IMG/VR virus record: IMGVR_UViG_3300048670_001593
Span: 1-64,000 of that record
Source of the DNA: a virus
Taxonomy: Duplodnaviria; Caudoviricetes
Strand: one strand, 5' to 3'
DNA: 64,000 nucleotides
Part shown: piece after piece, positions 1,087-48,905 of the stretch
How the letters are laid out: each line of letters begins with the position of its first letter
How positions within the stretch are numbered: the stretch's first letter is position 1
Notes under the pieces: generated by a model
What the model saw: only the letters and a program-made list of their open reading frames with translations
Database searches by the model: none
Told to the model about the DNA's origin: nothing
Made by a program: the position numbers and the translations under genes

Positions 1087-1107
1087 ATTTACAAACTGGA
1101 AAATTCA

Positions 1108-1920
1108 ATGAAAAAACTGCTGTTTATTCTTTCAATCTTATTATCAACACCAGTGTGGGCCTGGAATCAGACTCCGCCCAGACCTCTGGATGCCTGCCGG
1201 ACAGATGCGCCCTACGGTTTTCCACAGGGACGCCAGGGTTACGCCGAATGCCGACTGGCCTATGCCACGCTGAATGACACTCAGGCCAAATTGCCTGTCT
1301 GGACTGTATACACACTGACCCCCACCGAGGCCCTGGGGTGCTTGCCCAGAACCAACGCATTTGTGGCAGATGCCAGTATCCCCCGAGGTCAGCGAGCAGA
1401 GCCCGGCGATTACACCGGCACTGGCTACGATCGAGGCCACGTGGCCCCCGACGGCGATATGAGTTTTGATCCACAGGTGGAATATGAAAGTTTTCTGATG
1501 ACCAATATGATGCCACAACTGGGCGGATTGAATCGTGGCATCTGGAAATTGTTGGAAACCACCATTCGTGGCTGGGTGGTGCAGCGCCAACAGAGTTACA
1601 CTATCTATGCTGGTCCCATATACGGTGCTGGCGATCCCACCATCGGTGCCAATCGTGTGACAGTGCCACACGCATTTTATAAAATTGTCATCAACACGGC
1701 CACCGGAGAAACCCTGGGCTGGGTGTTTCCTCAGGCTGGTAATCTGGGCAATGATCTGACCCGATTCCGCGCACCCATCAGCAACATACAACAGCAGACC
1801 GGTCTGCGTTTTGGTTTTCCTGGCAATGTCAGAGAAATACCACCCGGCACAGAATGGCCTGTGGACTTTGGCCAGCTGACCAATGCCAAACGATCCCGCT
1901 GCGGTCGCACCAGTGAATAA
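1108..1920 (+). CDS. secreted DNA/RNA non-specific endonuclease (NucA/EndA family)
   Basis: Signal peptide MKKLLFILSILLSTPVWA; DRGH active-site motif; 'TNMMPQ..LNRGIW'; 'VPHAFYKIV'. Confidence 0.9.
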   Translation: MKKLLFILSILLSTPVWAWNQTPPRPLDACRTDAPYGFPQGRQGYAECRLAYATLNDTQAKLPVWTVYTLTPTEALGCLPRTNAFVADASIPRGQRAEPGDYTGTGYDRGHVAPDGDMSFDPQVEYESFLMTNMMPQLGGLNRGIWKLLETTIRGWVVQRQQSYTIYAGPIYGAGDPTIGANRVTVPHAFYKIVINTATGETLGWVFPQAGNLGNDLTRFRAPISNIQQQTGLRFGFPGNVREIPPGTEWPVDFGQLTNAKRSRCGRTSE

Positions 1921-1923
1921 TTG

Positions 1924-1952
1924 TTGACAACGCCGGCGATTTCCAGTATAAT
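1924..1952 (+). promoter_or_regulatory. sigma70 promoter
   Basis: Perfect TTGACA-17-TATAAT. Confidence 0.85.
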
Positions 1953-1958
1953 GGCTGT

Positions 1959-2495
1959 ATGAAAATACTAGAAATTGCCCAACCCAAAGCCACCGCCCAG
2001 AGCACCATCTATGTGGATATGGATGGAGTTCTAGTGGATCTGTTCAACCACGTGGGAGAAATTCACGACGTCGATCACTACAATGATATGACCAAATCTC
2101 AGTGGGACGAGTTTTTCCAGTCCACCAATGCCTATGAGTTGTTCAGAGATTTACCAGCATTTGCCACTGCCAACGCACTGCTAAAAATTGTTCAACAATA
2201 TGCCGGTGGTTATACCATTCTCAGCAGTCCCCTGAACTTTGACCGGGCCGGCAGTATTCAGGGCAAACAGGAATGGCTAACCAATCACATCACTGTGCCG
2301 GCAGATGCCTGGGTGTTTGAACACGACAAATACAAGTATGCCACCAACAATGGCGTTCCCAACATTCTGATCGACGATTGGGGCGTCAATATTGAAAAAT
2401 GGCGAGCTGCCGGAGGCATTGGCATCAAGTTTCAGAGTGACGAAGACACGCTGAACGTTCTGAAACATCAGCTGGATCTGGCCTACCAGAAGTAA
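1959..2495 (+). CDS. HAD-family 5'(3')-deoxyribonucleotidase (NT5C-like)
   Basis: DMDGVLVD motif I, LSSP motif II, 'ILIDDW' motif IV. Confidence 0.85.
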   Translation: MKILEIAQPKATAQSTIYVDMDGVLVDLFNHVGEIHDVDHYNDMTKSQWDEFFQSTNAYELFRDLPAFATANALLKIVQQYAGGYTILSSPLNFDRAGSIQGKQEWLTNHITVPADAWVFEHDKYKYATNNGVPNILIDDWGVNIEKWRAAGGIGIKFQSDEDTLNVLKHQLDLAYQK

Positions 2496-2507
2496 CCCCG
2501 CATAGTG

Positions 2508-2515
2508 TATAAATA
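2508..2515 (+). promoter_or_regulatory. T4-type late promoter TATAAATA
   Basis: Exact consensus, flanked by an 8-bp inverted repeat (catagtgt 2501-2508 / acactatg 2515-2522). Confidence 0.7.
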
Positions 2516-2563
2516 CACTATGAATTCTGATATCCCCACAATTGTCTCTGGTGTTCTGGAAAA

Positions 2564-3259
2564 ATGAGAACACAAGACCTATTCCGACAAAACATAGCCT
2601 ATCACGACCAGCTGAATCCTGATGTCTGGTCAGGCCATCAGATCAGAACAGAAGTCAGATATCGCCTGCTGCAGATAGCTCAGGTGTTTATGGAATATCT
2701 GGAAGTGCCGGACTTTAAATTGCTGGATGTTGTGCTCAGAGGCAGCCTGGCCAATTACAATTACACCCCATACAGTGACTTTGATCTGCACCTGATCACC
2801 AATTACGCAGATTTAAATTGTGACATTGCCGAAGCATTCTATCGTGCCAAAAAGACCCTGTGGAACAGTGAGCACGACATTCTGATACGTGGCCACGAAG
2901 TTGAAGTCTATGTGGAAGATGTTCAGGCGCAGGCCATCAGTGAAGGCACCTACAGTCTACTGGACGATCAGTGGCTGCGTCGGCCTACCCACCGACCACC
3001 TCGCATACGCAGTCGAGCAGTGGTGGCCAAGGCACAGGATCTCATGAGACAAATTGATCAGGAAATTGCCGATGGTAATGTGTCAGATCTGGAAAGACTT
3101 CAGTTAAAAATTAAAAATATGCGTAAAAGTGGTCTGACACGAGGCGGGGAATTCAGCACTGAAAATCTGGCATTTAAAATACTACGCAACCAGGGCTACA
3201 TTGACCGTCTGTATCAGGCACAAGCCCAAGCTCAGGATCAGAATCTCAGTCTGCCATGA
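2564..3259 (+). CDS. Pol-beta-superfamily nucleotidyltransferase
   Basis: GS..(x)..SDFDLH (hG[GS]x9-13DhD) motif plus a third acidic strand 'HEVEVYVED'. Confidence 0.75.
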   Translation: MRTQDLFRQNIAYHDQLNPDVWSGHQIRTEVRYRLLQIAQVFMEYLEVPDFKLLDVVLRGSLANYNYTPYSDFDLHLITNYADLNCDIAEAFYRAKKTLWNSEHDILIRGHEVEVYVEDVQAQAISEGTYSLLDDQWLRRPTHRPPRIRSRAVVAKAQDLMRQIDQEIADGNVSDLERLQLKIKNMRKSGLTRGGEFSTENLAFKILRNQGYIDRLYQAQAQAQDQNLSLP

Positions 3260-3328
3260 GTATTGACAGGAACCACCCATCTCAAATGACAACTCCGGAA
3301 CTTATCACTGAAAGAGAGAACAATTGAC

Positions 3329-4228
3329 ATGCGCATCTGGGAATTTTTAATCGAGCAGACACTCACAGAAGGCGCCACAGACATATTGTATCACTACGCA
3401 CCTGTGGGAGCTGCCCTGGAGATTCTGAAGTCTGGTGAGTTTGGATTCAGTCTGCTCAAAGGTGCTGATCGCAAAAACATGCCAGAAGGTTATGATTTTT
3501 TCTTCAGCACCACCCGCAGTCGTGTGGGCGATTATCACAGAACCACCGGCAACATTGCGGTGATGTTTGTGCTGGATGGTCGGGCCATAGCGCAGCGTTA
3601 TCGAGTGGTGCCTGTGGACTACTGGGAACAGACCTGGTTGGACACCCACGGTCACCGCACCCGAGAAAGCGAAGACCGCATACTCAGTCGCGAGCCCACC
3701 ATGAGCATTGGCTATGCCAGAGAAATACACATCTTGGTACAAGATTACCATAACGAAAATCACACCCCCGCACGTATCCGAACCTTGATCGATCTGGCCA
3801 ACCAACGAGGTATCCCACACTGGACTTATCTCAACCCCACTGCCTGGAGACTACAAGATCGTCGCCGTGCTCTGACGCCCGAACACGAACAGGCATATTT
3901 CCAGGGTCAACTACCACCAGAAAAGGACTACACTGGCACACAGTGGGAACCCACCGACTATGTCAGACCCTGGATAGAACTACTGGACTTTGATACTGAT
4001 CAGCGCAGTCAACTGGGCAACCGAGCACAGTATCTGTTGCGTCAATTGAACTATGGAACCCATCGAGGCGATGATCATGGTCTGTCATCAGATCTGAGCA
4101 ATTCCGGCAAACCCGGCAGCACAGGGCGTGAAAGTGTGGTCAGACTGGTGAAGTTTATGCGTGCCCGGGGCATGAGTATTCCAGACTTTGTGGAATATCT
4201 GCGCCAGAAATGGGAAAGATCAACTTAA
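3329..4228 (+). CDS. putative ADP-ribosyltransferase-fold protein with internal-protein-like N-terminus
   Basis: LYHY ... FFSTTRS ... ESEDRI fits the H/R-S-ExE ART layout; the N-terminus is MRIWEFLIE..LTE. Confidence 0.5.
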   Translation: MRIWEFLIEQTLTEGATDILYHYAPVGAALEILKSGEFGFSLLKGADRKNMPEGYDFFFSTTRSRVGDYHRTTGNIAVMFVLDGRAIAQRYRVVPVDYWEQTWLDTHGHRTRESEDRILSREPTMSIGYAREIHILVQDYHNENHTPARIRTLIDLANQRGIPHWTYLNPTAWRLQDRRRALTPEHEQAYFQGQLPPEKDYTGTQWEPTDYVRPWIELLDFDTDQRSQLGNRAQYLLRQLNYGTHRGDDHGLSSDLSNSGKPGSTGRESVVRLVKFMRARGMSIPDFVEYLRQKWERST

Positions 4229-4242
4229 CAAGGGGAAACATA

Positions 4243-4647
4243 ATGTTTAGCAAGAAAATAATTTGTTTGACGTTGGTTATGAGCTCGGTATTAACTTCGC
4301 TCTCAGCCACTGCTGCAGATGCACCGCCATACACAGTGACAGACGGCTATAAGGTGGATGCTGCTACCATGACAGGTTTCAGAGTCTGGCGCGAAGCCAA
4401 CTGTGCAGCTTGCCACGGGGCAGATCAACAGGGGCAAGTGGGCCCCAGTCTGATTGACAGTCTTAAGGTTCTAAGCAAGGCAGAATTTGTTAATACTGTG
4501 ACCAATGGTAGGTTGGCTCAGGGCATGCCTGCTTGGAACACCAATAAGCGAGTCATGGACAACATAGACAGTCTGTATGCTTATCTCAAAGGTCGTAGCG
4601 ACGGTGCCATAACCCGCACCAAACCCGAATTAATGCAACAACAGTAG
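4243..4647 (+). CDS. periplasmic cytochrome c, XoxG-like (partner of XoxF)
   Basis: RBS AGGGGA at 4231 supports the ATG at 4243. Signal peptide, CAACH haem motif, Met ligand in 'GMPAW'. 'YKVDAATM.GFR.W..' and 'LYAYLKGRSDG' resemble, from memory, the cytochrome encoded beside xoxF5 in Burkholderiales. Confidence 0.8.
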   Translation: MFSKKIICLTLVMSSVLTSLSATAADAPPYTVTDGYKVDAATMTGFRVWREANCAACHGADQQGQVGPSLIDSLKVLSKAEFVNTVTNGRLAQGMPAWNTNKRVMDNIDSLYAYLKGRSDGAITRTKPELMQQQ

Positions 4648-4664
4648 AAATTCAGGACAGGACT

Positions 4665-4707
4665 ATTGCTGCTACACTATTGATCTTGATGTAAGTGTAG
4701 CAGCAAT
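4665..4707. terminator. probable bidirectional terminator hairpin
   Basis: Perfect 14-bp inverted repeat attgctgctacact / agtgtagcagcaat between convergent genes. Confidence 0.7.
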
Positions 4708-4714
4708 TTCTATA

Positions 4715-5176
4715 CTAAGTTTTTTGTTTTTTGCTGGCAGCTACTGCCCAGTTACCGCGCAGGGCAAAATACAATCCACCGGCCCATAAACTGAAATGCA
4801 GATAATCAGTCAGAATAAAGTTGATCAAACTTTGGGGTTTAATCACAGTCCAGATCACTCCAGTGGCAATACAACACATGACAATGCCACTGAACCGAGT
4901 AACCATATCTCCCAGCACAGCCAATATGTGAATGTCTCGGATACGAGGTATGGTAGCCAACCCACCCACCAGTAGCCCGATGCCAGCTGCCAGTTCCCCG
5001 TAGCTGACAAACCACCACACCAGAGGCGGTAGGCCAAATGCTGCGCCCATGGCAGGGTTAAAGGGCATTTTAGACAATGCCTGACCTATAAACACCAGAG
5101 ACAATGGTATTCTAAGCAGAAGATGACTCAAACCCAGATCTGGCAATCGATGCCAATAATTTTCTAGTTTGGACAT
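4715..5176 (-). CDS. DoxX-family membrane protein
   Basis: Four hydrophobic segments; 'LLLRIPLS.VF....SK' and 'ELAAGIGLLVG' pattern. Confidence 0.7.
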   Translation of the reverse strand: MSKLENYWHRLPDLGLSHLLLRIPLSLVFIGQALSKMPFNPAMGAAFGLPPLVWWFVSYGELAAGIGLLVGGLATIPRIRDIHILAVLGDMVTRFSGIVMCCIATGVIWTVIKPQSLINFILTDYLHFSLWAGGLYFALRGNWAVAASKKQKT

Positions 5177-5183
5177 GATGATT

Positions 5184-5483
5184 TTACTTTAATGTGGCAA
5201 TATAAGCAGCTAGGTTGGCCATGTCTGCAGTGGAAAGTTGACCAGCTTGGGCCCACATCAGGGCGCTTTGTGGTCCACGTTGCTCTTTATTCTTGTAAGC
5301 TGTAAGCTTCTGCACAATCGCTTCAGGCTTTTGGCCCTGCAATTTGGGTCCTATCATGCCCTGTCCCTGTGCACCGTGACAGGCAGCACACACCGCAAAC
5401 TTGGTTTTTCCAGCAGCAACGTCTGCAGCCTGACCGAATACAGGTAGACCACACAATACCGCAGTTAGAATCATTTTTTTCAT
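5184..5483 (-). CDS. single-domain class I cytochrome c (c553/c4-like)
   Basis: RBS CAGGAG supports the ATG at 5483. Signal peptide, 'GKTKFAVCAACHG', 'GPKLQGQ', Met ligand in 'LMWAQA'. Confidence 0.9.
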   Translation of the reverse strand: MKKMILTAVLCGLPVFGQAADVAAGKTKFAVCAACHGAQGQGMIGPKLQGQKPEAIVQKLTAYKNKEQRGPQSALMWAQAGQLSTADMANLAAYIATLK

Positions 5484-5496
5484 GGAAAGGCTCCTG

Positions 5497-5652
5497 TTAA
5501 AATATAACATATTTAGTGGCAGCCACTGTGACAACAATAAAAATTGTCGCGAGGCTCAACGCTGCACCTGCCAGTGGCAGTATAAAATACAGATGGCTTG
5601 GGTGGAAATTATTGACCGGTAGCCAACGATTGGGCAATGTCTGTGATTTCAT
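5497..5652 (-). CDS. 51-aa membrane protein (not in ORF track)
   Basis: MKSQTLPNRWLPVNNFHPSHLYFILPLAGAALSLATIFIVVTVAATKYVIF. RBS AAGGA upstream; its TAA abuts the RBS of the cytochrome c gene. Confidence 0.6.
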   Translation of the reverse strand: MKSQTLPNRWLPVNNFHPSHLYFILPLAGAALSLATIFIVVTVAATKYVIF

Positions 5653-5676
5653 AATAGTCCTTGAATGGTTATTGAT

Positions 5677-5715
5677 AAAAAAATAAAGATAGGCTGGAAA
5701 TACTCCAGCCTATCT
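5677..5715 (-). terminator. Rho-independent terminator of xoxF
   Basis: 12-bp stem agataggctgga / tccagcctatct with a 5-nt loop, followed on the minus strand by TTATTTTTTT. Confidence 0.8.
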
Positions 5716-5741
5716 GACTACATTACATCAACTGCTGTTGC

Positions 5742-7553
5742 TTAATTGCTCAGTGCAAACACCATCAGGGTGCCACCCAGATCGCCGTACCGGGCGAGTT
5801 CCTTGTAGCCACCCACAGCGCCCAGACCGTCGCTGTCCTTCTCCAGGCCAGCAGCCATGCCGATACCGGCCCAGCCACCGATGCCGGTCAGAACGCCGAC
5901 GTACTGCTTGCCTTGGAATTCCCAGCTGTGAACGTTACCGATCACGCCCGACGGGAGCTTCGGCGAGGTCCAGACAACCTTACCAGCCTTGATGTCAACA
6001 GCCTTCAGACGGGCGTCCAGCGTGCCGTAGAAAGCCAGACCCGAAGCGGTGGTCAGAGCGCCCGACCAAACCGAGAACTTCTCGGGGATCGACCAAACGA
6101 TCTTGCCCTTGATCGGATCCCAACCGATGAAGTTGCCCATACCGCCGTGGCTGTTCGGAGCCGGGAACATGGCCAGGGTTGCGCCAACGTACGGTTGACC
6201 AGCGGTGTACTCGACACGGAACGGCTCGTAGTCCATACACACGTGGTTGGTCGGGACCAGGAACAGACCCGAGATGGGATCGTAAGCCGCCGGCTGTTGA
6301 TCCTTGGTACCCAGAGCTGCTGGGCAGATGCCCTTGGAGTTGACGTCTTCACCGTTCTGGTGGGTCGAGTACTTGGCTACCACTTGCGGGCGACCAGTCT
6401 TCATGTCCACGTGGGTGGCCCAGTTCACGGCCGGATCGAACTTCTCAGCAACCAGCAGTTCGCCGGTCTTGCGATCCAGGGTGTAGCCGAAGCCGTTACG
6501 GTCGAAGTGAGCCAGCATCTTGCGCTCTTTGCCGTTCTTGTCCTTGCCTTCGAACAGCGGCACTTCGTTGATGCCGTCAAAGTCCCACTCGTCGTGCGGG
6601 GTCATTTGGTAGACCCAGTTGACCTTACCGCTGTCAACGTCACGCGACCACAGGCTCATCGACCACTTGTTGTCGCCCGGGCGTTGCTTCGGGTTCCAGG
6701 TCGACGGGTTGCCGTTGCCGTAGAACATTGCGTTCAGTTCCGGATCGTACGAGTACCAGCCCCAGGTGGTGCCGCCGCCGATCTTCCACTGATCGCCCTG
6801 CCAGGTCTTCAGCGAGCTGTCCTTGCCCACCGGGGCCATCCGGCCGTCGGTCCAGGTCATGGTGGTGTTGGGGTCCATCAGCATGTCGCTGTCCGGACCC
6901 ATGGAGTAACCCTTCCATGCCAGCTTGCCGTCCTTGAGATTGTAGGCAGCAACCCAACCGCGAACGCCGAATTCACCACCGGAGATACCGGTGAAGACCT
7001 TGTCCTTGAAGACGTGGGGGGCGTTGGTGTTGGTTTGGCCCAACTTGGGATCGCCGTTCTTGACTGACCAGACGCGCTTACCGGTCTTGGCATCCAGAGC
7101 CACCAGGGTGGTGTCAGCCTGTTGCAACAGGACCTTGCCGTCGCCGTAGGCCAGGCCACGGTTAACGGTGTCACAGCACATGACCGGAATCACGCTGGGG
7201 TCTTGCTTGGGCTCGTACTTCCACTTGATGGTTTGGTCAGCCAGGTTGATGGCGAAAACCTTGTTCGGGAAAGCCGAGTGAACGTACAGGGTGTCGCCAA
7301 TGACCAGCGGGCCGCCTTCGTGGCCGCGCAGAACGCCTGTGGAGAACGTCCAAGCCACTTGCAGCCGGTTCACGTTGCTCTTGTTGATCTGGGTCAACCG
7401 AGTGTGGCGGGTGTTCGAGAAATCGTGGGCGGGAGCTGCCCAGTTACCCGGAACATCCATGAGCTTGGCCAGATCTGCATTGGCCAGGCTGGCTGTGGGT
7501 GCTGCCATTGCTGCTGCTACTGCAATACTGCTAAACAATTTCTTCAATAACAT
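5742..7553 (-). CDS. xoxF: lanthanide-dependent PQQ methanol dehydrogenase, XoxF (probably clade 5, Burkholderiales-like)
   Basis: Signal peptide; vicinal 'MCCDTVNRG' disulfide; metal ligands E (GGEFG) and N (GNP); 'EWDFDG' with the extra Ln-binding Asp (MxaF has WDYAG); full-length 603 aa; RBS AAGGAG. Confidence 0.95.
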
Positions 7554-7651
7554 TTACATCTCCTTGTGATGATAAAGTGCCGGTTGTCAGTGTGACCACA
7601 CTGGCCGCGGACCACAAGTTATTTGTACAGGGTTTGTCCTATACAAAATTA

Positions 7652-7679
7652 ATTATATACAGTCTAAATGATAGGTCAA
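7652..7679 (-). promoter_or_regulatory. sigma70 promoter for xoxF
   Basis: Minus strand TTGACC-16-TATAAT, about 100 nt upstream of the xoxF ATG. Confidence 0.6.
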
Positions 7680-7777
7680 GAAATTTTTTCAGATTTTTTA
7701 CAAAAAAACTCACACATAGGCCAACCTTGCCAGGCACAGTGAGTCAGACTAAATATACTATATTCTGAGTGAACATC

Positions 7778-9445
7778 ATGCGAGCACGACAATTTATCCC
7801 AAAAACCCCCATCTTAGAACAGCAACTGGATGAGATCAACATGAGTCCTGGAGCACTCAAACAGTTTGCTCAGACTCATCCCCTGGCACAGCAGATCACA
7901 GCTGGCTTTGAACTGGAACTGTGTTTTACTGACATCGGTCGACCCCAGGGCTATGGCGGCATAGAAGATGAGAGAATCAACAGATACTGGGATCTGGAAA
8001 CCATTCAGGATTTGTTTAGTGAATATACCAGTCGTCGTGACCGTGGTTATAGTCGTATGGAAGAGGATTACCAGACGGCCTATTTTGAAAAGGTCGCAGA
8101 TAATGTTGATCCCGACGAGGTAGAAAGGCTGGCCAGAGCTAAAGCCCGAGACGACATTGATTCTGACACAGTGGACGAACGTGTGCAGGCAGTGTTGGCT
8201 GACAACCCCGACGCTGATGAGGATGAGGTCAGAAAACAAGTCATAGAAGAAATAGTGGATGCCAACTGGTCAGATCATGAATACGAAGCCCACGAAGAAG
8301 CGGAAGAAGACGTCCGCAATGAGTTGGACTACGATTTTGGCGAGTGGCTCTGGGCCAATCACAATTATCTGAGCGATGTGGCGGCCGAGTATGATCTGGG
8401 AGTGCCGTTTGAAGATGAAGATTCATATGATGATACGCCCTATGATACTGATCAGATGGAGGACGCAGCACGTCGCCTCAGACAGTATACCGACATGCGG
8501 GTCAGAGTCAGCTCCAGTTACCACAGCGTGCAGCGCCTGCCGGGTCTGATAATCATTGAACCCGATGGTAGCATTGAACCCGATGACAGTGATGAGGCTG
8601 CTGCTGAAATCATTACTCCACCACTGCCACTGGCAGAAACCCTGGAGTTGTTTGCCAAAGTTCGAGACTGGGCTGAAGAATACGGCGGCTATACCAACAG
8701 CAGCACCGGACTACACTTCAACATCAGCAGCCCCGACATGAGTCAGTTTGACTATGTCAAAATGGTGTTGCTGCTGGGAGACCAGCATCTGTTGGGTTTG
8801 TTTGATCGTGAATACAACAGCTATTGTAAAAGTGCCATCGGCAAAATCATATCAGAGATGCGACGCCAACACTACCAGGGAGAGGGCCAAATGGATCGAG
8901 TGCTGGCTGAACGTGTGATGGAAGTGTTGAAATCTCACACCTATCGTCTGGCACAGGAATTCATCCAAGATGCCATCAAGAGCTGGGGCAATACATTCAC
9001 CACAGACAAATACACCAGTCTGAACTGGAAGGGCGATTACATGGAAGTCCGTGCTCTGGGTGGTCCCAAGATCATGACCGATCCCCAGCTGACTCTGAAT
9101 GCCATCTATCGTGTGATCAGAGTCTGGGCCAGTGCCGTGGATCCCAAACTGGATCGTGAAGAATATCTGAAAAAACTCTATGCCATGACACAGCGTGGTG
9201 TGGAAAACACTCAAGTGGGCAACAAGATATCAGTGAGTCAGATAATTTCACGTTACATGACCGGAGACCGCAGCAATCTGGACCTGCTGGTGGCCGAACT
9301 TCGCAAGCAGATCGCACAGAGCGCACAACAACGTGATCTGGCCAAAGTGCGTGGCCAACACAAACCTCTGCTGCCCGAACCCAACCCACAGATGAATCTG
9401 GATCTTCGTGATCGTCCTGGCCCTGTCGCCAATCAGGAGACCTGA
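7778..9445 (+). CDS. putative amidoligase (COOH-NH2 ligase type 2) with acidic insert
   Basis: GFELE, PDGSI, EIITPPL and TNSSTGLHFNIS motifs. N-terminus MRARQF..ILE; TAAATA at 7750. Confidence 0.75.
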   Translation: MRARQFIPKTPILEQQLDEINMSPGALKQFAQTHPLAQQITAGFELELCFTDIGRPQGYGGIEDERINRYWDLETIQDLFSEYTSRRDRGYSRMEEDYQTAYFEKVADNVDPDEVERLARAKARDDIDSDTVDERVQAVLADNPDADEDEVRKQVIEEIVDANWSDHEYEAHEEAEEDVRNELDYDFGEWLWANHNYLSDVAAEYDLGVPFEDEDSYDDTPYDTDQMEDAARRLRQYTDMRVRVSSSYHSVQRLPGLIIIEPDGSIEPDDSDEAAAEIITPPLPLAETLELFAKVRDWAEEYGGYTNSSTGLHFNISSPDMSQFDYVKMVLLLGDQHLLGLFDREYNSYCKSAIGKIISEMRRQHYQGEGQMDRVLAERVMEVLKSHTYRLAQEFIQDAIKSWGNTFTTDKYTSLNWKGDYMEVRALGGPKIMTDPQLTLNAIYRVIRVWASAVDPKLDREEYLKKLYAMTQRGVENTQVGNKISVSQIISRYMTGDRSNLDLLVAELRKQIAQSAQQRDLAKVRGQHKPLLPEPNPQMNLDLRDRPGPVANQET

Positions 9446-9448
9446 TCC

Positions 9449-9985
9449 TTGAGAGCCCGTGACCTATTGGAAAAGTGGAGCAAAAAATACAAGAGCTCAA
9501 TTGACTGCAGTCACCCCCAGGGTTTCAGCCAGCGTGCTCATTGTCAGGGACGCAAAAAGCACAACGAAGATGTTGATGCCGGCACACAGCCCACACTCAT
9601 GGATGCTCTCAGAGACTTCTTTCCTGTGGCCATGCAGCATCTGGATCTGGACCATCTGCCCAGAATCACCTTTGTCCAGGACGTCGCAGGCCATCGCGCC
9701 CCCACCTTTGGCAAGTTTATGAATGCTGAAAACACCATCTTTGTGGACATTGAGAATCGTCATCCCAATGACATCCTGCGCACTCTGGCACACGAACTTG
9801 TGCACTATCGTCAACAGTTAGATGGCCAACTTGATGACCGCAGCGGAGAAACTGGCAGTCCTATAGAAAATGAGGCCAATGCCACTGCTGGCGTAATCAT
9901 GAGAGAATTTAATAAAAAATATCCTGAATATCTAGACATGCAACCAGTTGTCTTGGGTGAAAAAAACAACATTGACAAAATATGA
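9449..9985 (+). CDS. zincin-like metallopeptidase (HExxH) preceded by a small Cys/His module
   Basis: TTG start with AGGAG upstream; 'TLAHELVHYRQ ... ENEANA'; N-terminus MRARDLLE. Confidence 0.7.
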   Translation: MRARDLLEKWSKKYKSSIDCSHPQGFSQRAHCQGRKKHNEDVDAGTQPTLMDALRDFFPVAMQHLDLDHLPRITFVQDVAGHRAPTFGKFMNAENTIFVDIENRHPNDILRTLAHELVHYRQQLDGQLDDRSGETGSPIENEANATAGVIMREFNKKYPEYLDMQPVVLGEKNNIDKI

Positions 9986-15151: not shown

Positions 15152-16258
15152 ATGAATCAAGTTCCCAGTTGCAGTGCAATCGATACCGGGTTTTTTATCA
15201 CCACCAGTGGCGGAGTAAAAACCTGCTGCAGTGGACAATATGACTTGGGCAGTATACGGACTCAATCAACTGTTGAAATTTTCAATAGTAAAAAATACAT
15301 TGACGTTAGAAATGCATTGGTCAACAATCAGCCCACTGAATATTGTAAACAATGCGATCATCAGGAATCCATTGCTCTGGGGTCCAGCCAAAAAACAATT
15401 TTCAATCAGAGTTTGCCCAGTGTCGGACAGCGAAAAATTAAACAAATTGACATCAGATGGAGCAATTTGTGCAATCTAGCTTGCAGATACTGCAATCCCT
15501 ACGACAGTAGTGAATGGGCCAAGTTGCAATCAATTCCCATCGAATCTCTGAATAGATCTTATATTCAGAGTGTATTCGACACAGTGTCAGAAAATTTGGA
15601 TTCACTTGAAGAAGTCTACTTGTTGGGTGGCGAACCCCTGTTACAAAAACACAACGAAACACTACTTGATCTAATAAGCGGTAAACAAAAAATTTCAGTT
15701 GTGACCAATCTCAGTGTTAATCTTGAAAAAAACAACGTATACCAGAAACTTAAAAAATTTCAAAATATTTCCTGGAGCCTGAGTTTTGAAAATGTTGGTG
15801 ACAAATTCGAATATGTCAGACACGGGGCCAATTGGCAAAAATTTCTCAACAATATCCAGATTCTTAAAGATGATTTTGGCACTGGTAAAATTGATTTTCA
15901 CCCAGTTTACAGCGTTTGGAGTGCGGTTGCATTAGACGAATTTTATGATTTCGCACACACTATTGGCGACTTTAAAATAACCTGGCAACTATGCAATGAT
16001 GAGGTCCAGTCTGGTTATGATATTTTTACTCATAATGAAAAAATAAAATCTGAAGCCATCAGACAGATTGAAAAAACTAATGTGGGATCATCTGCAAATT
16101 TCTTTAGTAAAGTCAAAGACAAACTCCAGACTTCTGAAGGTGTACCTCAGCAGAATCAAAAATTTTTAAATTGGATTGCTGAATCAGAGACACTATTGTC
16201 TCCTAACAAAACGTTTGCCGAGCTCTGGCCCAATTTATACCGATTACTGTCGGAATAA
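15152..16258 (+). CDS. radical SAM protein with N-terminal SPASM/twitch domain
   Basis: CNLACRYC; N-terminal C..CC..CxxC; GGEP; AT-rich. Confidence 0.85.
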   Translation: MNQVPSCSAIDTGFFITTSGGVKTCCSGQYDLGSIRTQSTVEIFNSKKYIDVRNALVNNQPTEYCKQCDHQESIALGSSQKTIFNQSLPSVGQRKIKQIDIRWSNLCNLACRYCNPYDSSEWAKLQSIPIESLNRSYIQSVFDTVSENLDSLEEVYLLGGEPLLQKHNETLLDLISGKQKISVVTNLSVNLEKNNVYQKLKKFQNISWSLSFENVGDKFEYVRHGANWQKFLNNIQILKDDFGTGKIDFHPVYSVWSAVALDEFYDFAHTIGDFKITWQLCNDEVQSGYDIFTHNEKIKSEAIRQIEKTNVGSSANFFSKVKDKLQTSEGVPQQNQKFLNWIAESETLLSPNKTFAELWPNLYRLLSE

Positions 16259-16271
16259 GGAATTGAAAAAA

Positions 16272-17717
16272 ATGAACAAAAAGTCATGGCCCATTGCATC
16301 CGACACCAGCTGCTATTTAAAATGGTCCTGGAGCACCATCTATCTGAATCGTGGCACCACTGCCAGCTGTCACAGAACAGTGCACAATCATTTCACAGCT
16401 GAAAATTTTGACGAATTTCATAATCTTCCAAAAAAATTAGATGATCGTCGCAGAATGTTGGCTGGGGGCTGGCCCGAAGAATCAGAAACCACCAAATGGG
16501 GCATCAATGGTTGCACCTATTGCAAGCACATAGAAGATCTGGGAGGGGTCAGTGATCGTCAAGTGCAATTAAGAAATCTAAGTTCGGTTTTTCAAAATCA
16601 CACCAATGTGCTGCCCCCGGAACTATTGGAAGACCCCAATGCTGTGTCAGTTACTCCCACCATTGTGGAAGTCTACTTTAACAATGTCTGTAACATGGCA
16701 TGTTTGTATTGTGGGCCACACTTTAGCACCATGTGGGAAGAAGAAAATCGCAGATTCAATGCTCAGGAAGACGGTATCCTGGCCAATCCCATGTGGCAGA
16801 GAGATAGGGAACGATATGATGCCATGCGAGATAAACTGTTTGCTTGGTTACGCGAACATGGTCACAAAATCTGGAATTTTGGCATGCTGGGGGGAGAACC
16901 ATTCTTCCAGAAAGAATTCGACATGGTGCTGGATCACTGGGAAAACTACCCCAATCCCGATCTGACTCTGACCATTGTGACCAATCTCAAGGTGGAACAT
17001 GGTAGATTTGTCAGGTATATTGACAGATTAAAACACATGGTGGAGACTGGTAAAATCAAATCCCTGAATATCAGTGCCAGTCTGGACTGCTGGGGACCAC
17101 AGGCAGAATATCTACGCTGGGGGTTAAATCTGGATGAATGGTCAAAGAATTTTGCTTATATGGTTCCCCAGGAATGGATTACCCTGAATGTCAACATTAC
17201 CATTACCCCGTTGAGTATAAAAACATTGCCGGATTTCTTGGAAAAGATCAATGCCTGGGATCAGGATCGATTAATAAACATTGTTGCAAAAAATTTAAAG
17301 TTGCCATACGAAAAGCTATCGCAACATCGAGATCGAATTTTGCAAATGATAGACCAAAATAAAATTCCCCAGGCTGATATCGACAAACATATTTGTATAA
17401 GTTTTATGCATGTGTTGGAACCCACTCAAATGAACCCCCTGTGGTTTGGGCAAGGTGTATTTACACAAGACATGCAACAAGTAGTAGACTTGATGCCTGT
17501 ATTGACTGAATATCAGAGAAATTATAAAACTTACATGCAAGGCATCGCCAATAGCATAGAAAAAACGCCTCGGGATCCTAAAAAGATATTGATGTTAGAA
17601 ACATATGTAAATGAGATGGATCGCAGAAGAGGAACCAATTGGAGAGATCTGTTTCCCTGGCTAATCGACCAGTTTGATCAGGCCAGAAATGAACTTGAGT
17701 ATCAAAATGAACAATAA
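16272..17717 (+). CDS. radical SAM protein with N-terminal SPASM/twitch-like domain
   Basis: CNMACLYC; GGEP; SLDCWG. The ATG at 16272 avoids overlap with the upstream gene. Confidence 0.85.
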   Translation: MNKKSWPIASDTSCYLKWSWSTIYLNRGTTASCHRTVHNHFTAENFDEFHNLPKKLDDRRRMLAGGWPEESETTKWGINGCTYCKHIEDLGGVSDRQVQLRNLSSVFQNHTNVLPPELLEDPNAVSVTPTIVEVYFNNVCNMACLYCGPHFSTMWEEENRRFNAQEDGILANPMWQRDRERYDAMRDKLFAWLREHGHKIWNFGMLGGEPFFQKEFDMVLDHWENYPNPDLTLTIVTNLKVEHGRFVRYIDRLKHMVETGKIKSLNISASLDCWGPQAEYLRWGLNLDEWSKNFAYMVPQEWITLNVNITITPLSIKTLPDFLEKINAWDQDRLINIVAKNLKLPYEKLSQHRDRILQMIDQNKIPQADIDKHICISFMHVLEPTQMNPLWFGQGVFTQDMQQVVDLMPVLTEYQRNYKTYMQGIANSIEKTPRDPKKILMLETYVNEMDRRRGTNWRDLFPWLIDQFDQARNELEYQNEQ

Positions 17718-28987: not shown

Positions 28988-29835
28988 GTTATTTTAATTT
29001 ATTAGATCAAATACATAACAATCTTTCATCTCCGAAAAGATCATGGTATTATGAATCGTTAACCAACAAAGACACTCTGTTGATCACAGCGGGAGATAGC
29101 TGGACCTGGGGTGATAGTCTTCTTGACATTGATGTCGAAGCTGGTAAGTATGACCATCCCGACAGAGTCAACAAAATATATGGTGCATTGCTGGCAAAAA
29201 AACTAGATGCTGATTTTATTAATCTTGCCAAATGCGGTGGTGCGAATATAGAGTTCTGTGATTGGGTAAAAACTCTTTTACCAATAGTCAAGACAAAATA
29301 TAAAAAAATTATTGTAGCAATTAGTCTGACTGAGAACTGCCGAGAATCATATGGGGATAGAATCTGGGTCCCTGAAGAACAACCCAGTCTTGAAGAATAT
29401 TTGTGTGAATACGAAAAAAATATGTTTGAAAATCTTGCTCTGACCTGCAAGCAACATAGTTCAGTTCACTTTGTAATTTCTAGAAACTTTACCTACAGCT
29501 TTGATAGTAATATTTTGCTACTTAAAAATTACTTAACTGAAAAGATTTGGGTTGATTGTTTAGCTGAATATCAAAACAATCAAAATTATCCCACAGATGT
29601 CAGGTTCCTTTCTGACATTGCACTAGTACCATTGCACAAACTACTCAAAGAAATTAAACTTTATAACAAGTATAAATTTCAATTTATGAGTTTATATGCC
29701 AGCAGTGAATTGGCAATCTCATGGTTAGAAAAAAGCAAGTTAAATTACAAAAAAGCCACAAAACATCCAAACGAACTCGGGCATGAGATTTGGGCAGATT
29801 ATCTGTACAATATAATTGTTGCCCGTTTACATTGA
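28984..29835 (+). CDS. SGNH/GDSL-like hydrolase
   Basis: GDSWTWG ... G.N ... HPNELGH; AT-rich. Confidence 0.65.
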   Translation: MSYFNLLDQIHNNLSSPKRSWYYESLTNKDTLLITAGDSWTWGDSLLDIDVEAGKYDHPDRVNKIYGALLAKKLDADFINLAKCGGANIEFCDWVKTLLPIVKTKYKKIIVAISLTENCRESYGDRIWVPEEQPSLEEYLCEYEKNMFENLALTCKQHSSVHFVISRNFTYSFDSNILLLKNYLTEKIWVDCLAEYQNNQNYPTDVRFLSDIALVPLHKLLKEIKLYNKYKFQFMSLYASSELAISWLEKSKLNYKKATKHPNELGHEIWADYLYNIIVARLH

Positions 29836-29860
29836 CTTAATATTATGATACTTTTATAAT
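29832..29860 (+). promoter_or_regulatory. sigma70 promoter
   Basis: TTGACT-17-TATAAT. Confidence 0.7.
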
Positions 29861-29937
29861 AAACTTAAAGAAAACAGCCACAAGATTAAAAATGAAGAAA
29901 CCCCAGCTGACCAATCCACCACCCAACAAATAAGGCA

Positions 29938-30525
29938 ATGAGTAATCCCTTCGATACAATTTCAGAATTTGAGCAGGCACTGGCAGAGTATACTGGTGCC
30001 CCGTATGCCATCGCAACTGATTGTTGCACTCATGCACTGGAACTGTGTCTGCGCTATCAGAAGCCTGAATTTGTGCATTTTACTGCGTTCACCTATCTGA
30101 GTGTGCCCATGACCATGCACAAACTGGGCATTGGGTTCAGTTATCTGGATGAAACCTGGCTGGGGGAATATCAGATACACGGCACCACCGTCTGGGATAG
30201 TGCCAGACGACTGGAATCCGGCATGTATCGACCTGGTCAGATGCAATGTCTGAGTTTTGGTCGTGACAAGCCCCTGGAAATTGGTCGTGGTGGTGCCATA
30301 TTATTAGACGACCCCCTGGCTTATGAAATCATGCGCAGGCAGAGATACGATGGCAGAATGCTGGAAATCACCCCCTGGGAAAATCAGAGAATATTCCATG
30401 TTGGTTATCATTATCGAATGAACCCCGAAGAAGCACGGATAGGTCTGGAAAAACTCCAGTCATTTGAACCCAACACCAGAATTAAAAAATATCCAGATCT
30501 GCGAAAAATTATTATTAGCAGTTAA
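29938..30525 (+). CDS. short DegT/DnrJ/EryC1/StrS-like PLP aminotransferase
   Basis: 'FEQALAEY.GAPYAIATDCCT.AL', 'DSAR', 'SFGRDKPL..G.GG', 'GYHYRM'; only 195 aa. Confidence 0.7.
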   Translation: MSNPFDTISEFEQALAEYTGAPYAIATDCCTHALELCLRYQKPEFVHFTAFTYLSVPMTMHKLGIGFSYLDETWLGEYQIHGTTVWDSARRLESGMYRPGQMQCLSFGRDKPLEIGRGGAILLDDPLAYEIMRRQRYDGRMLEITPWENQRIFHVGYHYRMNPEEARIGLEKLQSFEPNTRIKKYPDLRKIIISS

Positions 30526-30827
30526 TGAAAAAGCTAAATATGTTGAGTATTCCGACTGTAGGAAAATTCAGATTGTCAATTAAAACGTTAGTCGGAAGAA
30601 TTTTTCGCTTGAAAAAATGCACAATTTGGTAAGTGTCTCTAATGTGATTCCCATAACATTTTTGTAACCACTGTCAAAGCATATAGATTTTGATGGAGCA
30701 TTTTTAGATTTTAACTATATTTTGGAAAACACACCTTAGAGCAACTAATTATTAGATTAGTGCTGCACAGCAAGAGTAAGTAGATAAAAGAGATAACAGA
30801 TAAAGTTAAAAAAAATCTAAAATAAAA

Positions 30828-31736
30828 ATGCCAACTAATAATATAAAACCTCCTCTTGTATTTGGTGGTGCTGGTGCCATAATCGATCCCGAAATAAAAC
30901 AACAAATACATGATATCATTTGTAGTGCACCAAGTCAGGATTGGTTGGACGATTTGTCAATACATAAAATTTTTCTTGATCAGTATACCAAATGGATACT
31001 AGGTACTAGAAAAAATGTTATTCGAGGATTGGATCAGTATACGGTTAAAGCCTTTAGTCAAGGCACCACTGAATCCTTTGACAAATTTTATCTCAAACAT
31101 CATCGTCGCAGATTTAGATGTTTTCGAGGTGAATACATGTATCATACAGCCACTTGGAAAAATATTTTTTCAATGCAATGGAAACACATCGAAGACGACC
31201 CCATAGACAAAAATGATGCGGTTGTTATTAGTTTACCATTCAGCGATACCGGAGATTGCCACAATGATATGAAGCGTGTGCTTGAGCAGTGCTGTGAGCT
31301 TGATGTCCCCGTACTAATTGATTGTGCGTTTTTTGGAATATGTCAGAACCTAGAATTTGACTTTACTTGGCCTTGTATTACAGATATCACATTTAGTTTG
31401 AGTAAAACCTTGCCAGTTGCCCATGCCAGAATTGGCATGAGAGTGAGCCGGGTTGATGACGATGACAGTTTATTGGTTCATCAAAAAATTGGCTATATCA
31501 ATAGATTGGCGTGTGGGCTAGGTATAGAACTATTGAATCGATGGGGTCCGGACTACAACTGTGAAAAATGGACAAATGTACAACATCAGTTTTGTAAACG
31601 GTTAAATATAATGCCCAGCAAGAGTGTGGTATTTGGATTGGGTGGAGATGACTTCAGTAAATACAATCGAGGCGGTGCTACCAATCGCCTGTGTTTTTCA
31701 AAGTATCTATATTCCGGAACCCTGCCCCATGATTGA
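30828..31736 (+). CDS. PLP-dependent fold-type I enzyme
   Basis: 'VLIDCAF', 'FSLSKTL....RIG'. Confidence 0.65.
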   Translation: MPTNNIKPPLVFGGAGAIIDPEIKQQIHDIICSAPSQDWLDDLSIHKIFLDQYTKWILGTRKNVIRGLDQYTVKAFSQGTTESFDKFYLKHHRRRFRCFRGEYMYHTATWKNIFSMQWKHIEDDPIDKNDAVVISLPFSDTGDCHNDMKRVLEQCCELDVPVLIDCAFFGICQNLEFDFTWPCITDITFSLSKTLPVAHARIGMRVSRVDDDDSLLVHQKIGYINRLACGLGIELLNRWGPDYNCEKWTNVQHQFCKRLNIMPSKSVVFGLGGDDFSKYNRGGATNRLCFSKYLYSGTLPHD

Positions 31737-32457
31737 CATTGATTTAATAACTAGTAAGTACGATCCAAAAAACTATGCCATAGATTACAGTCACGGCACA
31801 CCTGTGCCTTGGTTGACGTTTGATGACTTCTTGCCTCAAGAACTACTACAAAGTGTACAAGAAGAAATAGAAACTGTGCCAGAACACCTTTGGAGTAAGT
31901 TTACTCGCAATGGTAGTTTCATGCGTGAATGCAATAATCTTAAATTTTCTCCACGCATAAGAGAATTGGTATTAAATCTCAACAGCAGTGAGTTTCTAAA
32001 TTGGCTGGAAAATATCACAGGACTTAAAAAAATCATAGCTGATCCACATTTGATTGGTGCTGGACTTATGCGTTGTGGATCAGGCGACAGTCTCAAGCTA
32101 CACACAGACTTTAATTGGAACGAACAATTGGGCCTCAATCGATGTCTTAGCCTGATTCTTTATATTGGAAAAACATGGCAATCTGAATGGGGCGGTGGAT
32201 TGGAATTTTGGGACTTCGAAAGAAAAAATCGATTACATACTATTGAACCCAAGCCCAATCGGCTGTTGGTCTGGAACTATCATGAACACCTGGTTCACGG
32301 TCATCCTACTCCATTGTCTTGTCCTAATAATGTTAGTCGAGACGGTATTAGACTGTTTTATTTTACTAGTAATGCCACTCCACTATCTCCGCCACATCGT
32401 AGTTTGTATTGGTTTGATAATGAAGTGGGTGCGTATGATCGAAAGGAAAATCAATGA
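31729..32457 (+). CDS. 2OG-Fe(II) oxygenase
   Basis: HTD ... 'WGGGLEF' ... HG ... R; the ATG at 31729 overlaps the upstream stop. Confidence 0.85.
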   Translation: MIDIDLITSKYDPKNYAIDYSHGTPVPWLTFDDFLPQELLQSVQEEIETVPEHLWSKFTRNGSFMRECNNLKFSPRIRELVLNLNSSEFLNWLENITGLKKIIADPHLIGAGLMRCGSGDSLKLHTDFNWNEQLGLNRCLSLILYIGKTWQSEWGGGLEFWDFERKNRLHTIEPKPNRLLVWNYHEHLVHGHPTPLSCPNNVSRDGIRLFYFTSNATPLSPPHRSLYWFDNEVGAYDRKENQ

Positions 32458-33122
32458 AGCTTTGGGTATTTGGGCACAGTTTGTGCTTGCCATTTGGGTT
32501 AGATAATAATGCACAAGGGTGGGGCGATTTGCTTGCTCAAGATCTTGGTGCTGAATTAAACAATCTTGCACGACCCGGTGTAGATAATTTTTACATCTAT
32601 TATAGCTATCAACAGGTTCTTAAAGATATTGACAAGGAAGACTATGTAGTAATCGGGTGGAGTCATTATAGCCGTAAATTGTTTGTGGTTGATAATGATA
32701 ATCCTGACCACATGAATGTTGTTGAAAAAAGTTTAACTTATGATACTCCACACGCTCAATTTATGCGTAACGGCAATGCAGTAACTGGCGACTCAACAAA
32801 ATGGTTAACTATGCGCCCACAGAATCGCGGAGTACCGTTTTATGATATATGGTATCAAAATTATTATAGTGAACTTGAGCAAAAGGTTAATTTTCAAAGC
32901 TATTTGGATAGTGTCAAACTTACATGTCCAGGGCAATACTTGCCATTTTATTTTAGCAACGAAACAGTGTCAGGCGTAGATATTGATACAAGGCATGCTG
33001 GATGTGTAACAGAATTTATTATTGAAAATAACTTATCAATATCTAAAAAAGATTTTCATTTCAGTCATGACGGTCATAGAATCTGGGCAAATTATCTAAA
33101 AAATTATTTGACATTATCCTAA
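32454..33122 (+). CDS. SGNH/GDSL-like hydrolase
   Basis: FGHS ... PG.DN ... DFHFSHDGH. Confidence 0.55.
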   Translation: MKLWVFGHSLCLPFGLDNNAQGWGDLLAQDLGAELNNLARPGVDNFYIYYSYQQVLKDIDKEDYVVIGWSHYSRKLFVVDNDNPDHMNVVEKSLTYDTPHAQFMRNGNAVTGDSTKWLTMRPQNRGVPFYDIWYQNYYSELEQKVNFQSYLDSVKLTCPGQYLPFYFSNETVSGVDIDTRHAGCVTEFIIENNLSISKKDFHFSHDGHRIWANYLKNYLTLS

Positions 33123-33136
33123 ATAATTGTTATACT
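33108..33136 (+). promoter_or_regulatory. sigma70 promoter with internal TAAATA
   Basis: TTGACA-17-TATACT. Confidence 0.7.
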
Positions 33137-33183
33137 AGTAGCAAGACTGGTTATCCACGACCGTAATAACTCGGAGAAATTGA

Positions 33184-33996: not shown

Positions 33997-33999
33997 GCC

Positions 34000-34028
34000 T
34001 TGACAACCGGCGTAAATAGTGTTACTAT
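34000..34028 (+). promoter_or_regulatory. sigma70 promoter
   Basis: TTGACA-17-TACTAT. Confidence 0.65.
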
Positions 34029-34058
34029 TTGACTGTCGTTAACAACTCTGGAGCAAAT

Positions 34059-36086: not shown

Positions 36087-36108
36087 AATCCTGACTTGGG
36101 AGAAGTCA

Positions 36109-36884: not shown

Positions 36885-36910
36885 ATCTGAGGCGAAGCGA
36901 TCGTAATCAA

Positions 36911-37759: not shown

Positions 37760-37780
37760 GATTTAATATTAAAGGAAAAT

Positions 37781-38884: not shown

Positions 38885-38893
38885 GGATCTGAT

Positions 38894-47481: not shown

Positions 47482-47567
47482 TTGTTTTAGCCCGCCTGTT
47501 GTTTTTTTAAAACGAAACAACTAGTATCTTTTAAATTAATGGTCAAAAAATTAGTTAAGAGTTGATA

Positions 47568-48891: not shown

Positions 48892-48905
48892 ACGGAGGCA
48901 TTAAA

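Follow-up and report, generated by a model that had tools for sequence, protein, structure and literature searches.

A putative lanthanide-type methanol oxidation cassette with predicted cytochrome electron acceptors in a large lake-water phage

Methanol ranks among the major sources of carbon and energy in lakes, soils and the ocean; of the enzymes that oxidise it, XoxF is the most widespread. Electrons taken by XoxF pass to XoxG (cytochrome cL), then to a second cytochrome c and from there to an oxidase. The route in M. extorquens methanol oxidation is cL to cH to oxidase, that is, a small class I cytochrome is needed after cytochrome cL/XoxG, and cytochromes of the c552/c554 type typically donate electrons to cbb3 and aa3 oxidases. 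Cyanophage psbA and psbD are the familiar examples of host-derived energy genes that are kept in phages and undergo phage–host recombination. Here we describe a cassette in a 64,000-nt stretch of DNA, called the window below, which is the first 64 kb of the 78.7-kb virus record IMGVR_UViG_3300048670_001593. The cassette contains xoxF, a xoxG-type cytochrome gene, a second small cytochrome c gene, a doxX gene and a 51-aa open reading frame (ORF). We consider it probable that a large freshwater phage carries here a genuine auxiliary metabolic cassette, one that would feed electrons from methanol to host respiration.

The closest described viral system comes from Lake Baikal. Coutinho et al. 2020 (PMC7678222) found methanol dehydrogenase genes in T4-like phages with predicted Methylophilaceae hosts and called this the first viral report; a first-pass annotation of the window, made from the letters only, had mentioned that such reports exist, and in this it was correct. 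Since the words xoxF, cytochrome and lanthanide do not occur in the text of the Baikal paper, which reports pqqA, that report gives no clade for the enzyme and no electron acceptor. The Baikal phages and the phage studied here are alike in being freshwater phages, in having a pyrroloquinoline quinone (PQQ) methanol dehydrogenase proposed to aid methylotrophy, and in having cytidylyltransferase-type accessory genes. They differ in that the Baikal phages have a GC content of 35% and a predicted Methylophilaceae host, whereas the present phage has a GC content of 46% and an XoxF5-type enzyme from another betaproteobacterial lineage. Unlike the Baikal phages, it also carries a XoxG-type cytochrome, a second cytochrome and DoxX, and its insertion can be traced against a cassette-free relative. 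Full-text literature searches found no phage xoxG or cytochromes tied to a viral methanol dehydrogenase. Thus, the viral methanol dehydrogenase gene alone is not new, and it is the dedicated electron-acceptor wiring that appears to be undescribed.

The xoxF gene (5742–7553, minus strand) is intact and encodes a 603-aa protein that we assign to the XoxF5-type PQQ methanol dehydrogenases, as follows. The protein scores 699.7 bits against TIGR03075 (cut-off 480) over residues 20–560, and PDB alignments span residues 9–603, which makes it a full-length family member. Its closest solved relatives are the XoxF5 structures 6dam (942 bits) and 6oc5 (909 bits), at 72–75% identity. Scores are lower for the XoxF2 and MxaF structures, at 570–635 bits (4mae, 634; MxaF, 584–631), and fall to about 290–330 bits for PedH and ExaA (PedH, 321–328). 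XoxF enzymes have an extra Asp two residues past the catalytic Asp, so that the motif is D-x-D in XoxF and D-x-A in MxaF. In the phage protein, residues C126-C127, E194, N282, D324, D326 (within WDFDG) and R352 are all present, and these are invariant across 12 diverse XoxF proteins. The N-terminus reads, by eye, as a Sec signal ending SLA/NA. In a maximum-likelihood tree the phage XoxF nests, with 100/99 support, within a clade of XoxF from uncultured betaproteobacterial metagenome-assembled genomes, in the D-x-D XoxF5-type group and apart from MxaF (DYA) and the ExaF-like paralogues; the paralogues in this tree come from four named bacterial genomes, and the reference set was composed without XoxF1, XoxF3 or labelled XoxF4. 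Taken together, the structure scores and the tree indicate that the phage enzyme is a lanthanide-type XoxF of the XoxF5 kind. The first-pass annotation had proposed a full-length PQQ dehydrogenase with signal peptide, vicinal cysteines, metal ligands and WDFDG, had placed it with the lanthanide-binding XoxF and had suggested a tree of XoxF, MxaF and ExaF; each of these elements was found, and in the tree the protein falls inside the XoxF5-type group. Between the phage xoxF and its nearest bacterial gene, dN/dS is 0.14, a value that places the phage gene under purifying selection.

The xoxF gene and its neighbours stand among phage genes, as the first-pass annotation had it. Phage genes lie on both flanks, which are shared with a cassette-free relative, and the contig is classed as viral, the context in which an auxiliary metabolic gene is recognised. 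To the left are genes matching a nuclease, a deoxyribonucleotidase and phrog_36119. Next to the cassette on that side is a 299-aa phage gene of no assigned family (3329–4228, plus strand), which the cassette cuts short. On the right is an amidoligase-like phage gene (7769–9445, plus strand; Pfam Amidoligase_2). The cassette-free relative, L007 (IMGVR_UViG_3300023179_007111), comes from another metagenome and carries the amidoligase-like protein at 96% aa identity. By blastn, L007 826–3943 matches window 1105–4222 at 96.8%, and L007 4758–6959 matches window 7735–9936 at 94.8%. The cassette is therefore seen as an insertion or replacement at 4222–7735: where the window has 3.5 kb, L007 has 0.8 kb of different sequence. 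The left-neighbour gene encodes 538 aa in L007 (3050–4666) as against 299 aa here, and nucleotide homology stops at 4222; because the left gene stops where the L007 homology ends, the cassette replaced the C-terminal 240 codons and the spacer. The C-terminal half of this gene is dispensable in the cassette genotype, and most of the gene is deleted in two related contigs, L095 and L096.

Both junctions recur in other samples. The left junction is found on five contigs, namely L095, L096, L097, L098 and one JGI 3300050338 contig known by its gene list only. These contigs join phage genes to xoxG, doxX, the 99-aa cytochrome gene, the 51-aa ORF and the 3′ end of xoxF, with 97–99.6% identity to the window there and a local arrangement that varies from contig to contig. 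The right junction recurs in L006, from another sample, where the amidoligase gene and the phage leader are joined to xoxF. L006 (JGI 3300013014, 4 kb) is itself a hybrid: the first ~1.7 kb are phage (amidoligase, leader and the 5′ part of xoxF), followed by a bacterial xoxF-xoxJ locus, and the switch occurs in sequence that phage and bacterium share without difference. The contig is one of two things, a natural phage–host recombinant or an assembly chimera, and it is a caution about the fine structure inside xoxF. A chimeric assembly is excluded as the origin of the overall arrangement because a cassette-free relative exists and the junctions recur in independent samples; on the evidence of these contigs the cassette arrangement is phage-borne. 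The chimeric assembly that the first-pass annotation had named as a possible refutation is, at the level of assembled contigs, contradicted at both junctions.

The first gene of the cassette, xoxG (4243–4647, plus strand), encodes a 134-aa monohaem cytochrome c of the XoxG type, with a signal peptide, CAACH and GMPAW, and a GC content at third codon positions (GC3) of 0.50. The listed ORF begins at 4210, and a ribosome-binding site (RBS) precedes the ATG at 4243. The top PDB match of the protein is XoxG, 6onq (E 2e-14), and the Pfam Cytochrome_CBB3 score is 51.9 bits. Its mature part has two haem cysteines only, while TIGR03874 is a four-Cys model; the label we would give it is "XoxG-type, short Burkholderiales form", which leaves it outside the TIGR03872 and TIGR03874 equivalogs. 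In 62 of 80 species genomes a homologue with 50–71% identity follows xoxF on the same strand, at a distance of no more than 600 nt. These genomes are mostly Burkholderiales, and 71% is the maximum identity of the phage protein to the Burkholderiales homologues. The 134-aa cytochrome is thus predicted to be the cognate acceptor of XoxF, and the structural match and the bacterial neighbourhoods support its XoxG-type assignment, in line with the first-pass choice of it as acceptor.

Comparison with the bacterial clusters of Burkholderiales and of M. extorquens AM1 (XoxF1, 6oc5; XoxG, 6onq) shows the same XoxF ligands, 72–75% identity in XoxF and, in each, a predicted XoxG acceptor. The arrangement is different. 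In the bacteria xoxF and xoxG are adjacent in those 62 of 80 genomes, whereas in the phage they run on opposite strands and are separated by 1.1 kb that holds three other genes. Unlike in the bacterial clusters, the phage xoxF and xoxG come from different donors, and xoxJ is absent from the record. The phage XoxG is the short form of ~130–140 aa; the XoxG of AM1 has 196 aa.

Between the convergent xoxG and doxX genes there is a hairpin with a perfect 14-bp stem, at about 4665–4708, that looks like a bidirectional terminator. It folds with −26 kcal/mol on one strand (z −4.2) and −25.4 kcal/mol on the other (z −6.1), a stability reached by 0 of 200 shuffles. The hairpin is kept in L095–L098. In L097 (5776–7763) and L098 (517–2504), genes of 103 aa and 558 aa are inserted between xoxG and doxX; the 558-aa product matches DNA_pol3_alpha and, more weakly, DNA_pol3_finger, and window segment 4588–4671 is duplicated on either side of the insert. 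The layout suggests that a mobile or homing element was inserted at the hairpin.

The remaining three genes are on the minus strand, between the hairpin and xoxF. The small cytochrome gene (5184–5483) encodes a 99-aa protein, a soluble class I cytochrome c of the c552/c554 type, with a signal peptide, CAACH and the conserved LMW Met. Its start is probably the ATG at 5483, the listed ORF beginning at a TTG at 5537. Its PDB matches are c554 2zzs (E 9e-22) and c552 1cno (E 3e-17). Both cytochromes, then, have the signal-like N-terminus and the CxxCH motif that the first-pass annotation had described for two exported cytochromes. Downstream is the gene for a 153-aa integral membrane protein, probably of the DoxX family (4715–5176). 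The evidence on the DoxX call, also made in the first pass, is as follows: the Pfam DoxX score is 23.1 bits, marginally under the 23.6 cut-off, many homologues of 70–83% identity carry PF07681, and in the protein atlas a feature score of 0.96 links it to clusters with 100% DoxX members, of which some are 100% viral. Upstream of the small cytochrome is the 51-aa membrane ORF (5497–5652), which has one hydrophobic helix and no family match. The first-pass annotation did not mention it; it is called as a gene in L097 and L098, and its region is identical in L095, L097 and L098.

The small cytochrome and DoxX have a history of their own. DoxX-like genes with 47–80% identity are found on 48 IMG/VR contigs of up to 317 kb, and on 18 of the 48 a 98–99-aa cytochrome c, 57–74% identical to the phage copy, is encoded directly upstream. 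The cytochromes of these 18 loci share a conserved signal peptide, CxxCH and the TAYKNK..LMW motifs, and the gene order and orientation are the same as here. DoxX is also often accompanied by a 145-aa protein, at 17 loci, or by a small COQ7-like protein, at 10 loci. On none of the 48 contigs was xoxF, xoxG or a cox gene found within 8 kb of DoxX. Elsewhere the pair is found with a COQ7-like gene, whereas here the 51-aa ORF is upstream instead, and the pair is fused to xoxF and xoxG. We found no published account of a phage cytochrome c/DoxX module in the literature. These comparisons mark the small cytochrome and DoxX as an older phage module that occurs without xoxF. Because it does so on other phage contigs, the link of cytochrome and DoxX to methanol oxidation rests on co-location only.

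A different set of partners is seen on a phage-looking 287-kb contig, L118 (JGI 3300045434 Ga0492735_0000003), where positions 5231–8779 hold a single-strand run of genes, also present in L119. The run encodes a cytochrome c (112 aa), a COQ7-like protein (103 aa), DoxX, CoxB (TIGR02866, 193 bits) and CtaD (TIGR02891, 678 bits), followed by SHMT. Other genes of L118 include a class II aldolase, a phrog_14168 nuclease, many ORFans and phrog_3577. A search of IMG/VR with the L118 COX1 gave no match. If L118 is a phage, then a haem-copper oxidase core, subunits I and II of the aa3 type, is phage-encoded. The position of DoxX beside CoxB and CtaD points to a place for it at the membrane end of a chain.

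The genes of the cassette have three origins. The phage xoxF is 95.5% nt identical to the bacterial contigs L002–L005, and this only over 7505–5751, the mature coding region. Its neighbours on the bacterial contigs are xoxJ (TIGR03871), a beta-propeller protein gene and a MoxR/VWA cluster, none of which is found in the phage. The first 16 codons of the phage gene resemble the signal-peptide region in L099, which is a different bacterial lineage. The 79 mismatches between phage and bacterial xoxF are clustered, with 20 in one 100-nt window (0 of 20,000 permutations, P < 5e-5), and there are stretches of 350–480 nt with just 1–2 differences. The GC content of xoxF is 0.60 and its GC3 is 0.775, versus a GC3 of 0.42–0.50 for xoxG, the small cytochrome gene and doxX; the phage has a GC content of 0.46, and its genes a GC3 of 0.40–0.56. 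Those bacterial lineages that are nearest in xoxF showed no xoxG of the phage type in the sequence examined, up to 10 kb on either side. We read xoxF as copied recently, or renewed over and over, from a gene of an uncultured betaproteobacterium; it appears to keep recombining with bacterial xoxF. We read xoxG as a Burkholderiales-type gene that now has a phage-like composition. From the differing GC3 values and the separate relatives of xoxF, xoxG and the cytochrome c/DoxX pair, it follows that the cassette is best described as a mosaic of a resident phage cytochrome c/DoxX pair, an older xoxG and a recent xoxF. The "wired-up module" of the first-pass annotation stands insofar as the genes are found together; it does not stand as one imported operon, the GC3 of xoxF being host-like and that of the other three genes phage-like.

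The closest sequence relatives of xoxF and xoxG are betaproteobacterial or Burkholderiales, in keeping with the Burkholderiales-like affinity noted in the first pass. The closest xoxF of a GTDB representative is only 80% identical (TMED100), and the AcrB marker of the donor contig is 53–58% identical to the four genomes tried. The host is likely an uncultured betaproteobacterium, or a member of the Burkholderiales, from the predicted xoxF-bearing lineage. The parallel with cyanophage psbA and psbD may be close, in that a host-like core energy gene, a mosaic pattern of identity and a proposed supply of energy during infection would be common to both. The difference is that XoxF is a periplasmic dehydrogenase, dependent on a cofactor and a metal and thus reliant on host PQQ and lanthanide, and that it is found in only some members of the phage population.

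The expression signals of xoxF are those of the phage copy. The leader (7554–7735, minus strand; GC 0.385) is particular to the phage copy, is present in L006 and shows no homology to the region upstream of bacterial xoxF. It contains an RBS, AAGGAGA at 7565–7559, and a sigma-70-like promoter, TTGACC-16-TATAAT at 7679–7652 on the minus strand (−35 at 7679–7674, −10 at 7657–7652), which matches the consensus at 11 of 12 positions in a promoter scan. Directly after the xoxF stop is an intrinsic terminator (5677–5715, minus strand) with a 13-pair stem and a T-run by consensus scan, 12 pairs in the RNA fold, and a fold energy of −22.9 kcal/mol (z −4.9). Together with the hairpin at 4665–4708, these agree with the promoter, RBS and two terminators of the first-pass annotation.

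We propose that the parts would work as follows. The xoxF gene would be transcribed from its host-type sigma-70 promoter, and XoxF would be exported via Sec to the host periplasm, there to be loaded with host PQQ and a light lanthanide imported by the host. XoxF would turn methanol into formaldehyde and pass the electrons to the phage XoxG-type cytochrome c, which would probably hand them to the small phage cytochrome of c552/c554 type. From the small cytochrome the electrons would go to a host terminal oxidase, giving extra proton-motive force during phage replication. DoxX would probably be the membrane-side partner of the small cytochrome.

Other explanations can be set against this proposal. 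That phage and bacterial reads were joined in assembly is hardly credible. The near-identical stretches of xoxF shared with a co-occurring bacterial gene would favour it, as would L006, which switches from phage to bacterial sequence in such a stretch and would mean that chimeric joins occur near xoxF. However, the cassette has phage sequence on either side, both of its junctions recur in independent assemblies from other samples, the bacterial homology is limited to the mature coding region, and xoxG, the small cytochrome gene and doxX differ from the neighbours of xoxF in the bacterium. Nor do we favour the suggestion that xoxF is transient passenger DNA, picked up from the host not long ago, through illegitimate or homologous recombination, and without benefit to the phage; this would fit the host-like GC3, the high nucleotide identity to a bacterial gene, the lack of xoxF in the close relative L007 and the truncation of a phage gene by the cassette, and yet we judge it improbable. 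The gene is intact, with a low dN/dS, and has a terminator as well as a promoter, RBS and signal-peptide N-terminus that are specific to the phage. At least five further samples contain the cassette, in varied local arrangements and with backbones 3–7% apart, and the cognate acceptor that accompanies xoxF stems from a different lineage.

A role for the genes may also be granted and the proposed chain disputed. The cassette might be two unrelated modules, with xoxF and xoxG a methanol auxiliary metabolic gene set and the c554-like cytochrome, DoxX and the 51-aa ORF a separate redox module that receives no electrons from XoxG and has a possible quinone, peroxide-stress or oxidase role. The many DoxX loci lacking xoxF and xoxG speak for this division, as do the partners of the module elsewhere (COQ7-like, the 145-aa protein, AhpC, or CoxB/CtaD), the terminator between xoxF and the trio, and the two added genes that part xoxG from the trio in L097 and L098. 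We find the division less likely than not, and it is the chief uncertainty of the proposal: the trio stays joined to the 3′ end of xoxF, at 99.3–99.6%, in all variants that reach there (L095, L097 and L098), the classical methanol oxidation route calls for a small class I cytochrome next after cL/XoxG, and what is missing at the L007 locus is the whole block, not just xoxF. The purpose might instead be the supply of carbon or nucleotides, or detoxification, with formaldehyde or formate entering C1-folate, purine and thymidylate synthesis, or with other alcohols or aldehydes being oxidised. XoxF5 enzymes do accept formaldehyde and ethanol in vitro, and the phage also encodes thymidylate synthase and other genes of nucleotide metabolism. 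A carbon-supply role was proposed by Coutinho et al. 2020 for the T4-like Methylophilaceae phages (PMC7678222). What the present cassette carries, however, are electron acceptors, xoxG and the second cytochrome, and not formaldehyde-assimilation genes, and no tetrahydromethanopterin, tetrahydrofolate or ribulose monophosphate pathway genes were seen near the cassette; we think carbon supply in place of energy unlikely, while noting that the two purposes are not mutually exclusive.

Several points nevertheless count against a cassette that feeds methanol electrons to respiration, which we continue to prefer. All of its functional steps are drawn from homology. The 134-aa cytochrome is under both NCBIfam cut-offs, with 74 against 161.75 bits for TIGR03874 and 21.4 against 147.8 bits for TIGR03872 (MoxG). 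Because a strong terminator follows xoxF and xoxG is on the opposite strand, the four genes are not one operon. Many phages have the cytochrome c/DoxX pair but neither xoxF nor xoxG; the pair may have a function of a different kind, and it may neighbour xoxF only by way of a hypervariable locus. The un-ameliorated composition of xoxF marks a recent arrival that could be transient, and the mosaic identity could in part be a consensus mixing of phage and host reads in assembly. Phage and putative donor contig differ widely in GC content (0.46 against 0.64), and for this reason the donor may have been an organism other than the host. Finally, only ~22% of the phage genome is covered by the record.

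If the proposal is right, infection can directly raise lanthanide-dependent methanol respiration, and the picture of phage energy genes extends from photosynthesis to chemotrophic periplasmic respiration. The phage would then encode a natural lanthanoenzyme that is reliant on the metal and PQQ supply of the infected cell. As a metagenomic auxiliary metabolic gene the case is unusually well controlled, with a near-identical relative lacking the cassette and several population variants, and by physical fusion it gives the widespread cytochrome c/DoxX phage module its first tie to a defined electron donor. It is tempting to go further and propose, tentatively, that large freshwater phages share a plug-in toolkit for periplasmic electron transport, in which a core of cytochrome c and DoxX has been extended in some lineages by a donor (XoxF/XoxG) and in others by a sink (the aa3-type oxidase of L118). 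Parts of the host respiratory chain would thereby be rebuilt end to end, with xoxF kept host-matched by recombination, like psbA. This wider idea is plausible, though we would not yet bet on it.

The first-pass annotation had suggested a survey of viral databases for xoxF with cytochrome synteny, and the outcome is divided: the contigs with the left and right cassette junctions were found, and more distant xoxF-like genes showed no such adjacency. Among isolated phages (INPHARED, searched by megablast and tblastn) no relevant close xoxF was found; the matches were glucose-dehydrogenase genes in contaminated records and were set aside. Among metagenome contigs, exact copies of 28- and 31-nt strings of the phage xoxF leader gave 0 matches in two scans, an outcome that carries no weight. 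In IMG/VR, peptide patterns drawn from the single protein or from an alignment gave no close xoxF, and a degenerate DNA pattern for HDEWD[YF]DG gave five contigs with XoxF-like genes of 52–61% identity and a GC content of 0.39–0.40. A cytochrome gene was next to the XoxF-like gene in 0 of these 5, the nearest cytochrome c being 5 kb off, in G005. Two of the contigs, G001 and G005, were not counted as secure viral xoxF, both inspected neighbourhoods being bacterial-looking. Beside the xoxF-like gene (DYD motif), G005 46000–62000 and G001 29000–41000 have genes for CsgG/curlin, FecR, porins and PstS, and in the same regions for peroxiredoxin, a CHASE2 cyclase and a molybdopterin oxidoreductase that resembles formate dehydrogenase alpha. 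These records may be misclassified contigs of streamlined methylotrophs. The window, for its part, may rank among the phage xoxF cases with better support.

As to the record as a whole, CheckV gives a completeness of 22%, which suggests a full phage genome of ~350 kb, and the record is probably that of a jumbo phage of lake water. It has a PHROG match to DNA polymerase (phrog_262, 642 bits) and, elsewhere, matches to thymidylate synthase, an exonuclease and a tail-fibre-like protein. In the 78.7-kb record xoxJ, pqqC, pqqD and COX1 were not found, pqqA, pqqB and a dedicated PqqE model lying outside the search. The first-pass statement that xoxJ and pqq genes are missing therefore holds for xoxJ, pqqC and pqqD and goes no further, and such absences are weak evidence because the record covers so small a part of the estimated genome. 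Opposite the xoxF leader and overlapping its promoter is a 63-aa ORF with a GTG start (7577–7768, plus strand); it has no family match, is conserved in L006 only and is probably not a real gene. The record also contains radical SAM genes, whose best match is the twitch-type family NF033640, with no PqqE model among the matches listed. Nine genes match this twitch-domain family at 190–400 bits (15152–17717 in the window and 64922–73972 in the record), none of them PqqE-like, and seven of the nine form an unbroken array.

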